In this document: positions 121 through 44,853 of the stretch, piece by piece
How the letters are laid out: each line of letters begins with the position of its first letter
How positions within the stretch are numbered: the first letter of the stretch is position 1
Assembly (NCBI GenBank): GCA_963717445.1
Contig: OY970334.1
Coordinates: forward strand, 3,891,406-3,955,405
Length of the DNA: 64,000 nucleotides
Origin: an uncultured Bacteroidota bacterium
GTDB lineage: Bacteria; Bacteroidota; Ignavibacteria; UBA10030; UBA8401
Direction of reading: 5' to 3'
Position numbers and translations under genes: made by a program
Notes under the pieces: model-generated
Seen by the model: the letters and a program-made list of their open reading frames with translations, nothing else
What the model was told of the DNA's origin: nothing
The model's database searches: none

Positions 121-136
121 CCCTTGTCAAAATTTT

Positions 137-290
137 AAACCTTAACAAGGTTTGCTTGGTAGTGCTCAAGTTTGCGTTCTTGCGAGAGGTGACGGACACC
201 TTTCTCCCAAAAATCACGTTATGCGAGATTATTTGGCAAGATAAATCGGTAAGGTGTCCGTCACCTTAACAAACTTGAGCACTACCGTTT
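137..290. repeat. Nested perfect inverted repeats (17 bp outer, 16 bp inner) forming a long hairpin upstream of pfk
   Basis: Outer arms GGTAGTGCTCAAGTTTG (158-174) and CAAACTTGAGCACTACC (270-286). Inner arms AGGTGACGGACACCTT (187-202) and AAGGTGTCCGTCACCT (251-266). Small hairpin AAACC-TTAACAA-GGTTT at 137-153. CCTTAACAA is directly repeated at 140-148 and 264-272. Confidence 0.6.
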
Positions 291-377
291 GCTTTTCCCC
301 CTTTACGATGCATGAAAAATTTCGTACATTATAGGCTGAAGTGAAATATTGTGTGCAACCAATGAGAAGGATTATAC

Positions 378-1478
378 GTGACTGAAAAGAGAGTGAAAAG
401 GGTTGGAATTCTTACCGGAGGCGGCGATTGTCCGGGACTTAATGCTGTCATCCGCGGCGTCGGCAAGTCCGGCATCAACGACCATGGATTGACTGTCGTG
501 GGTATTGAAGATGGCTTCGAAGGGTTTGTGGAAGGAAGAATGCACGAGTTGTCCCGCAGGGAAGTTTCGGGCATCATCGGTTTAGGCGGAACGATTCTCG
601 GAACGTCCAACAAAGGAGACCCGTTTCACTACCCAACGGAAGGAAATAACGGAATTGAAATTGTCGACGCGTCTGCTCGAACGTTGAAGCATTATAGAGG
701 ATGGGGGCTCGATTGCCTTATCGCTATCGGCGGCGACGGGACGATGCACATTTCAAATAAACTTGGCGAAATGGGGATGAATATCATCGGTGTGCCGAAA
801 ACTATCGACAACGACCTTGAAGCAACCGACCAGACTTTCGGGTTCGATACTGCTCTTTCGATTGCGACGGAAGCTATCGACCGCCTCCATACAACCGGTT
901 CGGCACATCATCGTGTGATGGTGATTGAGGTGATGGGACGGTATGCCGGTTGGATTGCGCTGGAGGCGGGCTTGGCAGGCGGCGCGGATATTATCTTGAT
1001 TCCGGAAATTCCGTTTAAGTGGGGATCGGTGTTTGAAAAAGTGATCGAACGAAGCACGCGCGGCAACCGGTTTAGCATCGTCTGCGTCGCGGAGGGGGCT
1101 AAGGCCGCGGACGAAGATGTTGTGGTGAAAGAGACGGACATTAAAAGGACGGACCCTCTTCGGTTCGGAGGAATCGGCGAACACGTTTCGCAAAGGATAA
1201 CCAATGAAACCGGATTGGAGTCCCGTGTTACCGTGCTCGGCCATCTTCAACGTGGTGGAAGCCCGACCGCTTATGATAGAATTCTTGCGACGCGGTACGG
1301 CACCAAAGCTGTTGAGCTCGCCATGCACGGAAAATTTGCCCACATGGTCAGCCTCCGCGGACTTCATGTTACAGCGGTTCCCATTGCCGAAGCCATTGCA
1401 AACCAGCGGCTTGTTCCTTTCGACGGAGAAATTGTGAAATCGGCGCGCGCCGTCGGCATTAATTTTGGGGACGAATAA
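378..1478 (+). CDS. pfkA: 6-phosphofructokinase, possibly PPi-dependent type
   Basis: GILTGGGDCPGLNAVIRGV, GGDGT and GVPKTIDND motifs. The Lys in the GxPKTIDND position is typical of PPi-PFKs. GTG start. Confidence 0.9.
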   Translation: MTEKRVKRVGILTGGGDCPGLNAVIRGVGKSGINDHGLTVVGIEDGFEGFVEGRMHELSRREVSGIIGLGGTILGTSNKGDPFHYPTEGNNGIEIVDASARTLKHYRGWGLDCLIAIGGDGTMHISNKLGEMGMNIIGVPKTIDNDLEATDQTFGFDTALSIATEAIDRLHTTGSAHHRVMVIEVMGRYAGWIALEAGLAGGADIILIPEIPFKWGSVFEKVIERSTRGNRFSIVCVAEGAKAADEDVVVKETDIKRTDPLRFGGIGEHVSQRITNETGLESRVTVLGHLQRGGSPTAYDRILATRYGTKAVELAMHGKFAHMVSLRGLHVTAVPIAEAIANQRLVPFDGEIVKSARAVGINFGDE

Positions 1479-2902: not shown

Positions 2903-3444
2903 AGGAGCTTACCTCTAAATCGCAAAGATTGCTGGTTTCTTGTAAAGATTTCGAGAGCTTCTTTTTCTCTTGTAGGATGATTACTTCTAGGATGATAGTT
3001 TGATCCTTCCGATCCTTCGTTCGAAAAATCCTCGATATTGTTTTTAAATTGCAAACTCCCCAACACCGTTAAATTTGAAGGTTACCAGGTTGGAAGTAAT
3101 ACATGATGTCGGAGACCTTATCTAGGAAATCGCGATATGTTGAATCTTTTAGTGTAAAGCAGAAACCCACGGCCTATGGCGGTGGTTATGTTCAGTTGAC
3201 CATGCTTGTCATTCCGGTCGAGTCCCGCTTTCAGGCGGGACGAAGAACCGGAATCCAGTTCCGTTGATTGACTCTGGATTCCGCGTCAAGCGCGGAATGA
3301 CTTGCTTTTTCTTTTCAAAAGCCACCATCTTTGATGGTGGTCGTTTACTCCGATAAATTAAAAAGGTGTCCTCCATCTGCCCAGTCTAGCAGTGCTAGGA
3401 GGGGCGAGGCTTTTTTTTTACCGTGGAATTACCTAAATTGTCGC

Positions 3445-7415: not shown

Positions 7416-8012
7416 ATGAACGAAACGATCGCTCGCGATATTATCGACCCCGGGCTTCTGTTAAACGCCTACCGCTGCGGCATTTTTCCGATGGCGGAAA
7501 GTAGGGAGGGAGAAATCCATTGGTACGAGCCGGAGCTTCGAGCGGTGTTTCCTCTCGAAGGGCTGAAAATATCGAGAAGCTTGCGACAGACAATAAGGAA
7601 AAAGATATTCGACATCCGGCTCAATACCTCGTTTGAATCGGTTATGCGGAGATGCGCGGATCGTGAGGAAACATGGATCTCCGAGCCGATTATTCAAAGT
7701 TACTGTGAACTTCACCGGCGTGGTTTTGCTTTCTCGGTTGAATCGTGGCAGGGCAGCGAACTTGCCGGCGGGCTTTACGGGGTTGCGCTCGGGGGAGCTT
7801 TTTTCGGAGAATCGATGTTTAGCAGGATGAAGGATGCATCGAAAGCCGCCCTTGTTGCGCTCGTTCAGCATCTTCGACAACGGCAGTTTGTTTTGCTCGA
7901 TGCGCAATTTATGACACCACATCTTCAGAGTCTGGGTGCGGTCGAAATTTCACAACGCGAGTATTTGAGCCGGCTTCACGCCGCGCTTCAACTCAATCGG
8001 TCATTTGCATAG
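7416..8012 (+). CDS. aat: leucyl/phenylalanyl-tRNA--protein transferase
   Basis: NAYRCGIFPMAESREGEIHWYEPELRAVFPL…GGLYGVALGGAFFGESMFS is the typical Aat sequence. Internal ATG at 7416. Confidence 0.85.
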   Translation: MNETIARDIIDPGLLLNAYRCGIFPMAESREGEIHWYEPELRAVFPLEGLKISRSLRQTIRKKIFDIRLNTSFESVMRRCADREETWISEPIIQSYCELHRRGFAFSVESWQGSELAGGLYGVALGGAFFGESMFSRMKDASKAALVALVQHLRQRQFVLLDAQFMTPHLQSLGAVEISQREYLSRLHAALQLNRSFA

Positions 8013-24031: not shown

Positions 24032-24195
24032 TCAAAACCTCATTTTCGTTTACTAATGTAATTCATTTAGTCAAGAATATCAAGGCAAAGATACGGTTTG
24101 AAAAGATGTCGGATACCTTGTTCATTTGCATTATCAAATAATTCCATTTGCCGCGATTTTTTGATAAAGTGTCCGACATTTAAAATGCGGAGCAA

Positions 24196-24234
24196 ATAAA
24201 AAAGCCACCCCGGTTCATTCCGGGACGGCTTTTT
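24196..24234 (-). terminator. putative bidirectional terminator after argG
   Basis: A-run, then hairpin (GCCACCCCGG-TTCATT-CCGGGACGGC), then T-run. Confidence 0.5.
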
Positions 24235-24267
24235 ACTCCATACTGACTACTGCTTATTGAAATCAGT

Positions 24268-25506
24268 CTACTTTCTCCGCTTCAGCAATTTTTTCGCTCT
24301 TCCCCCGCCGGATTTGTTAACCCGGTGGAATGTTTTCAACGGCAAGCCATAAATTTTAATAAATCCTTCCGCTGCCGAATGGTCGAACGTATCCTCGACT
24401 GTGTAGGTTGCGAGTTGTGTATCATAGAGGGAATAGGGGGATGTCCGCCCGCCGACAGTAAGATTGCCTTTATACATCCGCACATTAACCAGTCCCGTTA
24501 CGTTCTTCTGTGTTTCGTTGACGAATTCGTCGATTGCTTTTTTTAACGGAGAGAACCAAAGACCGTTGTAGACGAGCGTTGCGTAGTCGTCCGACAGCTT
24601 CGCTTTGTAATGAAAAACTTCTTTATCGAGCGTCAGCCGCTCTAACTCGCGATGAGCAAAATGGAGCGTGACTGCAGCCGGTGCTTCGTACACCTCGCGC
24701 GATTTGATTCCGACAAGCCGGTTTTCGACAAGGTCAATTCTTCCGATCCCGTTTGCCCCGGCGATTTTGTTGAGCGCTTCAATGAGCGAAACGCCCTCCA
24801 TTTTTTTTCCGTTAAGGCCGACAGGCACGCCTTCTTTGAATTCAATCGAGACATACGTGGCTTTATCCGGCGCATCTTCCGGCGAAACCGTTCGCTGGTA
24901 TGCATCCAGCGGCGGCTCGACCATCGGGTCTTCAAGAATTCCACATTCGATCGCCGTACCCCAAATGTTCTCGTCGATCGAATATGGATTTTTCTTTGTC
25001 GCTGAAACTGGAATTCCGTGGCGCTCACAATATGCTATTTCTTCTTCGCGGGATTTGAATTCCCATTCACGAAGCGGAGCGAGCACCTTCAGTTCCGGGG
25101 CCAGCGCCATCACCGAAACTTCAAAGCGAACCTGATCGTTTCCTTTTCCTGTGCAGCCATGGGCAACGGCGGTGCATCTCTCCCTCTTCGCGACATCAAC
25201 GAGGGCTTTTGCGAGAAGCGGGCGACCGAGCGATGTAGCCATCGGATAAACGTCCTCATACAACGCTCCGGCTTTGAGAGCGGGGAAAATATACTCCTCG
25301 ACAAATTCTTTCTTCAGGTCTTGAATGTAGACTTTTTTTGCCCCCGTTTTATAAGCTTTTTCGGCGACGCCGACAAGCTCTTGTTGTTGTCCGAGGTTTC
25401 CGGTAACGGTGATGACATCCGCATCATATTTTTCCTGAAGCCATTTTACGATAACGGATGTGTCGAGACCGCCTGAATACGCGACTGCAATTCTTTCTTT
25501 CTTCAC
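24268..25506 (-). CDS. argG: argininosuccinate synthase
   Basis: [10 protein letters not shown]-type ATP PPase motif. 412 aa. Confidence 0.95.
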
Positions 25507-44779: not shown

Positions 44780-44853
44780 GGGCCCTTAGCTCAGTTGGTT
44801 AGAGCAGCTGACTCATAATCAGCGGGTCGGAGGTTCAAGTCCTCCAGGGCCCA
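44780..44853 (+). tRNA. tRNA with CAU anticodon (Met, or Ile2 read as lysidine-CAU)
   Basis: Manually folded cloverleaf: acceptor GGGCCCU/AGGGCCC with discriminator A; D-arm GCUC…GAGC; anticodon stem GCUGA/UCAGC with loop CUCAUAA; T-arm GGAGG-UUCAAGU-CCUCC. C4-G69 and C5-G68 resemble tRNA-Ile2. No CCA is encoded. Confidence 0.9.

Follow-up and report, generated by a model that had tools for sequence, protein, structure and literature searches.

A nested hairpin upstream of pfk in an uncultured Bacteroidota genome is very probably a 129-bp MITE with IS1-family terminal repeats

The nested hairpin that separates a GH31 glycosidase gene from pfk in the 64,000-nucleotide stretch of uncultured Bacteroidota DNA analyzed here (the window) is very probably a MITE. 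Positions 158 to 286 of the plus strand make up a complete, non-autonomous element of 129 bp that belongs to the IS1-family group, carries IS1-family terminal repeats, and was presumably inserted by an IS1-family transposase acting in trans, a reading to which we assign a probability of roughly 0.9. The match to the family alignment extends over model positions 1 to 129 (nhmmer, E = 1.5e-36). The stretch is short and noncoding, is bounded by terminal inverted repeats shared with insertion sequences (IS) and by an 8-bp target-site duplication, has dispersed copies elsewhere, and corresponds to an empty site in a relative, which are the marks of a MITE. A MITE-like element was one of the identities proposed in the initial annotation, and it is upheld on these grounds; another, a recombination site, applies only trivially, insofar as a transposase acts on the ends. 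The position of the element upstream of pfk is probably incidental, as would be any effect on that gene.

The left terminal inverted repeat, GGTAGTGCTCAAGTTTG (158 to 174, plus strand), forms the 5' arm of the outer stem, and the right terminal inverted repeat (270 to 286, minus strand), of an arm type conserved across the family, forms the 3' arm. These outer arms are 17 nt each, are 100% complementary, and enclose 95 nt. Nested inside them is a second inverted repeat, whose left arm, AGGTGACGGACACCTT (187 to 202, plus strand), is itself a near-palindrome and whose right arm lies at 251 to 266 on the minus strand; the inner arms are 16 nt each, are also 100% complementary, and enclose an A/T-rich core loop of 48 nt (203 to 250, plus strand). 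An unpaired spacer of 12 nt is present between outer and inner arms on the left side only (175 to 186, plus strand), versus 3 nt on the right (267 to 269), and this asymmetry fixes the polarity of the element, relative to which the orientation of the loop is constant. Abutting the terminal repeats are the left and right 8-bp copies of the target-site duplication, GTTTGCTT, at 150 to 157 and 287 to 294. The coordinates and perfect complementarity of the nested 17- and 16-bp repeats around the 48-nt A/T-rich loop agree with the initial annotation, which had also drawn attention to a direct repeat, CCTTAACAA, at both ends of the structure. Two copies of CCTTAACAA exist (140 to 148 and 264 to 272), but the second lies inside the element, where other family members read CCTTACCAA, and the pair is not a flanking duplication. 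Likewise, an AAACC/GGTTT hairpin described at the left edge does exist, but it is part of a larger host palindrome (122 to 150) that directly follows the GH31 stop codon, is 79% complementary (11/14), and lies outside the element; the counterpart of this palindrome in a MITE-free relative (L089, 2463 to 2493) is a perfect 15-bp stem, and the palindrome may act as a terminator or a binding site. The ORFs that span the element are only mechanical ones of 30 to 47 amino acids, indicating no coding capacity. A scan for sigma-70-like promoters and terminators, which does not cover Bacteroidota-type promoters, made no call inside the element, and positions 150 to 294 had no BLASTN match in collections of phage and plasmid sequences.

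The upstream ORF, ending at 120, is the C-terminal part of the GH31 glycosidase, and the element starts 38 nt past its stop codon. The downstream gene, pfk (378 to 1478, plus strand), encodes an ATP-dependent 6-phosphofructokinase (PF00365), whose closest homologs bear names that point to an Ignavibacteria-like host, and its start lies 91 nt 3' of the element. The intervening pfk-proximal region (295 to 377, plus strand), with CCTTTACGAT and AATTTCGTACATTA, is conserved, is the presumed promoter and leader of pfk, and is left intact by the insertion. AATTTCGTACATTA (300 to 334) is near-invariant 5' of pfk among all relatives, and a TACATTA that resembles it is also found 5' of a CcdA-like gene (approximately 24045 to 24060, minus strand); the motif may be a -10/-7-type promoter element of this lineage. 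The RNA fold of positions 121 to 300 has a predicted energy of -75.5 kcal/mol on the plus strand (z = -9.6) and -82.2 kcal/mol on the minus strand (z = -11.0); none of 200 shuffled sequences was as stable as the native one, which is about 10 standard deviations more stable. Within the 64-kb window, each arm matches only its own partner, the element is present as a single copy, and no second long hairpin with nested stems was found. L001 (GCA_049589135.1), which was assembled independently, is identical to the window over the right 57 nt of the element and the sequence downstream. The L001 contig starts inside the loop of the element and ends, on its opposite side, in another repeat-like stretch near position 3239; a break inside the element is what is expected of short-read assemblers, which stop at repeats or strong hairpins.

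The identity of the terminal repeats ties the element to the IS1 family. An exact scan for the 17-mer GGTAGTGCTCAAGTTTG in one genome per species returned 55 loci, about 30 of which are chance matches or coding sequence, and in about 12 loci the 17-mer adjoins an ORF of about 280 amino acids, or a fragment of one, encoding a transposase. Five elements of 1.4 to 4.1 kb (L055, L044, L060, L065, and L027), from Bacteroidota, Acidobacteriota, and Myxococcota genomes, have the 17-mer at both ends with 0 to 2 mismatches, the identical 17-mer being found at both ends in L055, L044, and L060 and at one end in L065 and L027. All five are flanked by perfect 8-bp duplications, each different from the others (TTCCTTAT, CAACGCCA, ATGTCGGC, CCCCCATC, and GCGAAATC), and four of them carry an intact IS1-family transposase gene, with a remnant in the fifth. 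The partner transposase matches Pfam DDE_Tnp_IS1 (PF03400) with 28.2 and 37.2 bits, against a cutoff of 24.1, and its best NCBIfam match is transpos_IS1 (NF033558), with scores of 57 to 60 that lie under the curated cutoff of 100, indicating that the partner transposases are distant members of the IS1 family. In addition, the partner transposase is 43 to 46% identical, over 92 to 96% of its length, to four plasmid proteins, three of which are annotated as "IS1 family transposase" (RefSeq/GenBank) and one only as an HTH-domain protein; for one of the plasmid homologs annotated as IS1, the element end reads GGTAATG. As the IS1 family is described in ISfinder, members of its single-ORF and ISMhu11-like subgroups are bounded by GGnnnTG and generate duplications of 8 to 9 bp. 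The window element ends in GGTAGTG on both sides, which fits the GGnnnTG form. An ISAba3-like element of the IS1 family has terminal repeats beginning with GGTGGTG and 8-bp duplications (PMC6382973). By tblastn, no IS1-type transposase is encoded within the 64-kb window.

Two side observations concern the sizes of elements with such ends. Four of the five elements above (L055:232-3949, L044:962-5105, L065:792-4752, and L027:3596-7435) are unusually long for IS1-type elements, at 3.7 to 4.1 kb, and contain passenger ORFs; that in L044 appears to hold a nested ISL3-type transposase gene, as judged by eye from the ORF translation. At the other extreme of size, Terriglobia genomes (L028:2883-2919, L039, L043, L046, L064, L040:5159-5197, and L038:6895-6928) carry minimal elements of 34 to 39 bp that consist of two IS1-type terminal repeats placed back to back, 0 to 5 nt apart, with flanking duplications of about 8 bp, such as GAAGATGT in L040. 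One genome has four copies of these minimal elements that lie within a larger repeat.

Copies of the whole element are dispersed at other sites. A metagenome scan with a pattern that spans the right end and the inner arm found 18 loci, representing 17 distinct further copies because one insertion was sampled twice, and a homologous copy of 128 bp (L053) came from the genome scan. Pattern matches in L076, L079, L083, L085, and L086 were set aside as chance matches or coding sequence. The copies range from 116 to 130 bp in length, with a mean identity of 89% among 18 aligned copies, all 18 of which share one layout: terminal repeat, 12 to 13 nt, inner arm, loop, inner arm, 3 to 4 nt, and terminal repeat. 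Target duplications are perfect (8/8) in 10 of the 18 distinct copies, the window copy included, and differ in sequence from copy to copy; a further six copies have duplications matching at 7/8 positions. The copies lie in intergenic DNA at unrelated sites, between long ORFs, with tandem, convergent, and divergent neighbors. Additional copies, for which the initial annotation had proposed a search, were thus found on other contigs by pattern scans of both genomes and metagenomes, and they occupy unrelated intergenic sites.

The perfection of the two stems, to which importance had been attached at the outset, is real in the window copy but does not extend to the family, since the other 17 aligned copies pair at 11 to 15 of the 17 outer positions and 13 to 15 of the 16 inner positions. 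In most copies from the metagenomes, the left end is altered at two fixed positions (GGTAGTGATCAATTTTG), which accounts for the incomplete pairing in most copies, and the stems of the window copy are perfect because it has the canonical pair of identical 17-mers seen in the full-length elements. Perfect stems thus mark a copy as young or canonical. Because the outer arms serve as ends of a transposon and are mismatched in other copies, the outer stem is a predicted pair of protein-binding sites and not a selected RNA helix.

The GH31-pfk gene order is kept in relatives whose PFK is 95%, 93%, and 85 to 86% identical to that of the window, and the element is absent from the pfk spacer of all those compared (L003, L005, L006, L009, L010, L011, and L089). 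In L089 (PFK 95% identical), the GH31-pfk spacer is 122 nt long and aligns with the window on both sides of a gap of exactly 137 bp, which corresponds to the element plus one copy of the duplication (129 + 8). The target reads GTCTGTAA in L089 and GTTTGCTT in the window, and L089 is therefore not the exact pre-insertion allele; the reconstructed empty allele contains AACAAGGTTTGCTTTTCCCCC. A second empty site is found in the opposite direction, on a contig (L074) that is syntenic with positions 25032 to 13293 of the window at about 82% identity; it carries a MITE copy of its own, for which the corresponding window site is empty. The spacer is just 61 nt in the relatives with 85 to 86% identical PFK and about 300 nt in L003/L005 (95%) and L006/L009 (93%), where the distal parts are unrelated to the hairpin and differ between the two groups. 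Only the approximately 80 nt beside pfk (CCTTTACGAT to AATTTCGTACATTA) are common to the window and all seven relatives. The possibility that the spacers of about 200 bp in L003 and L006 represent a diverged hairpin was ruled out, as their sequence is unrelated and their folds are ordinary (z = -1.9 and +1.1). As an observation in its own right, the distal GH31-pfk spacer is hypervariable (L003:2703-2940 and L006:2698-2940 versus window positions 121 to 294), and three lineages with PFK 93 to 100% identical each have a different distal sequence of about 130 to 240 bp, mutually unrelated, with none in the 85% relatives.

The insertion may be envisaged as follows. An IS1-family DDE transposase, supplied in trans by a full-length element elsewhere in the genome, would bind both terminal repeats and make staggered cuts of 8 bp in the target, so that the element would be inserted and GTTTGCTT duplicated. 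The predicted landing site is 5 nt past the GH31-proximal palindrome and about 8 nt upstream of the conserved region that runs from CCTTTACGAT to TACATTAT. Insertion at this point would leave the presumed pfk promoter intact and would disrupt neither the GH31 stop codon and palindrome nor the pfk-proximal region.

That the hairpin is primarily an intrinsic terminator of the GH31 gene is improbable. Its start, 38 nt past the stop codon of GH31, and the GUUUGCUUUU that follows it would suit such a role, but intrinsic terminators do not resemble a 129-nt stem-loop whose loop measures 48 nt, and no terminator is called by the consensus scan because the loop is far above 8 nt. Relatives terminate GH31 without the element. 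In addition, the U-rich stretch 3' of the hairpin consists of the right copy of GTTTGCTT and the next two T's, and it is therefore target-site sequence and not part of the element; the sequence that follows other copies is unrelated to it. Terminator-like activity could nevertheless arise as a by-product of the MITE insertion. In RNA that reads through from GH31, the hairpin and GUUUGCUUUU could attenuate read-through into pfk, as a terminator or a processing site, and this would be a side effect and not a built-in function, since the tail is derived from the target and is not seen after other copies.

The initial annotation had also suggested a structured 5'-UTR or sRNA controlling pfk, and a structured leader, riboswitch, or sRNA would be in keeping with a very stable fold that lies 91 nt upstream of pfk on the same strand. 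This explanation is very unlikely. The hairpin matched no Rfam family, either at gathering thresholds over the whole window or at E ≤ 10 over positions 1 to 500, where the search yielded noise only, and the Rfam check envisaged earlier has thus come out negative even at E = 10. The hairpin is missing from the spacers of the relatives with 95%, 93%, and 85% identical PFK, in which the proximal 80 nt or so are conserved; elsewhere, copies lie beside unrelated genes in all orientations and have target duplications of their own, and their outer stems are mismatched. On this evidence, the suggestion of a regulatory RNA is not supported, and the MITE is preferred. At the gathering threshold, the sole Rfam match in the window is a tRNA gene at 44780 to 44853 (plus strand).

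The core of the element has relatives that lack terminal repeats. When the ends and the inner-arm motif were compared, no similarity was found between the core and the interiors of the long elements, and the core, being unlike the IS interiors examined, makes this a type II MITE. An origin of the MITE as a deletion derivative of an IS was considered and rejected, since the inner-arm motif is absent near the ends of full-length elements at up to two mismatches; a loosely analogous small palindrome, GACAAnnTGTC, about 13 nt inside one end of some long elements is too weak to use. Searches with nhmmer and the family alignment also detected core-only homologs without terminal repeats, here called modules. 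A module of about 85 nt at 24096 to 24180 of the window (minus strand; E = 1.8e-6 and 3.9e-13; ortholog L074:878-960) sits between a strong terminator (approximately 24195 to 24235) and the start of a CcdA/DsbD-like gene (approximately 24031). A second, split module occupies 3105 to 3153 and 3345 to 3378 (plus strand; nhmmer model positions 8 to 56 and 52 to 85), with matches to the arms; its halves are about 190 bp apart, with other repeat DNA between them. A box-like match at 7603 to 7617 was discarded because it lies inside a gene. Three modules without terminal repeats are present in L074, of which two are missing at the orthologous window sites and the third is shared. In L068, the loop of the single module is interrupted by a MITE copy with the duplication AAACATTT, and the loops of these repeats seem to be insertion hot spots. 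The DNA that splits the second window module (3154 to 3344) contains nested inverted repeats of its own (GTCATTCCG with CGGAATGAC and CGGAATCCAG with CTGGATTCCG), is single-copy in the window, is reminiscent of widespread extragenic repeats of the GTCATTCC type, and contains the point at which L001 ends (approximately 3239).

The inner arm AGGTGACGGACACCTT is homologous to the module arms, AGATGTC-G-GACATCT, and the loop sequence is recognizably conserved in the modules. Identity is about 65% among the modules, about 62% between modules and MITE cores, and about 87% among MITE cores, and the greater divergence of the modules makes their family look older, with the MITE as a recent burst. In all six examples checked, a terminator-like hairpin comes first and the module follows, ahead of the next gene and with constant polarity. 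Across MITEs and modules, the inner helix is paired in 90% of cells and three of its pairs have changed on both sides; these are very few events, and symmetry at the DNA level fits them as well as an RNA helix does. For two of the L074 modules (L074b and L074c), the idea that modules are decayed MITEs was rejected, because the upstream terminator leaves only 12 to 14 nt beside the module and thus no room for a 17-nt terminal repeat and spacer. No target duplication was recognizable around the modules, whose orthologous spacers are too diverged for exact boundaries to be drawn. From these sequence comparisons, the core was probably captured from this older and more diverged family of extragenic hairpins, which lack terminal repeats. 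That the core is a captured module in its own right, with a pair of AGRTGWC-S-GWCAYCT boxes spaced about 65 bp apart, and not junk between transposon ends is a tentative and, in our judgment, rather doubtful proposal. Should the module be functional in itself, it might be a paired operator, an insulator, or the substrate of a second mobilization system, and the IS1 transposase would then have been enlisted to carry it to further promoters, that of pfk among them.

The modules also bear on whether the element is REPIN-like and was moved by a RAYT, a tyrosine transposase, its IS1-like ends being coincidental. The core does consist of two inverted near-palindromic boxes that form a hairpin, and the relatives without terminal repeats are extragenic and follow terminators. 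RAYT/IS200-type transposition, however, is not known to generate target duplications. The copies with 17-bp ends have precise 8-bp duplications, the modules without such ends have none recognizable, and elements that bear an IS1-type transposase have identical ends; a coincidence of this sort is highly improbable. Less probable still is an invertible promoter switch (inverton), in which a recombinase would flip the 48- or 95-nt segment. Perfect inverted repeats around a short A/T-rich segment 5' of a gene in a Bacteroidota genome are what such a switch would present, but in all 18 copies the loop and the asymmetric spacer keep one relative orientation, the outer arms prove to be ends of a transposon that are flanked by target duplications, and no sigma-70-like promoter was called inside the element. 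An assembly fold-back artifact, which the break of an independent short-read contig inside the loop might suggest, is equally remote, given the asymmetric spacers (12 versus 3 nt), the nonpalindromic loop, the identical right half in the independent assembly, and the eighteen homologous copies from other samples.

Identification of the hairpin as a MITE has consequences for how the locus is read. In annotation, it should be labeled a mobile-element insertion, and neither a regulator of pfk nor an unknown RNA. The element is a sign that the IS1 family was recently active in a lineage of uncultured Bacteroidota, and it probably explains why short-read assemblies of the organism break at this locus. 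The kinship between the core of a type II MITE and resident extragenic hairpin repeats also bears on the question of how MITEs originate. As a side effect, a hairpin of -75 kcal/mol immediately 5' of the core promoter might shield pfk from transcripts that read through from GH31.

In type II MITEs, only the terminal inverted repeats are shared with an autonomous IS (PMC10969869). Like other prokaryotic type II MITEs, the window element is small and noncoding, has ends identical to those of an IS and a duplication of the same length as that of the IS group, occurs as dispersed intergenic copies, and would form a stable hairpin as a transcript. It differs from them in that its core is homologous to separate extragenic hairpin repeats without terminal repeats. 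To our knowledge, this MITE family, whose hosts are uncultured Bacteroidota (Ignavibacteria-like), has not been described previously. With the IS1 family it shares the GGTAGTG ends, the 8-bp duplication, and a partner protein that matches DDE_Tnp_IS1; unlike IS1-family members, it has no transposase, and its partners are long (3.7 to 4.1 kb, with passenger ORFs) and have a distant transposase. MITEAba12 of Acinetobacter, which is about 113 bp long, belongs to the ISAba12 group, and has a 9-bp duplication, has been observed experimentally to move (PMC6382973). The logic of identification is the same in both cases and combines a genome-wide survey with target duplications and with terminal repeats that an IS also has, whereas the window element belongs to a different IS group and has an 8-bp duplication, and its mobility is inferred. 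REPINs are REP doublets that form hairpins (PMC3116915, PMC3337134), and the core and the modules resemble them in having two inverted near-palindromic boxes with a spacer between and in being extragenic; unlike REPINs, the window copy is bounded by ends of the IS type and by an 8-bp duplication, and no conserved cleavage motif of the REP type was recognized. Correia (CREE), BOX, RUP, and SPRITE-type repeats are intergenic hairpin repeats that can alter the expression of neighboring genes (PMC10969869). The window element has no sequence relationship to these repeats; what it shares with them is its form as an intergenic hairpin and the insertion of such repeats into one another, as seen in L068 and at positions 3105 to 3378 of the window.
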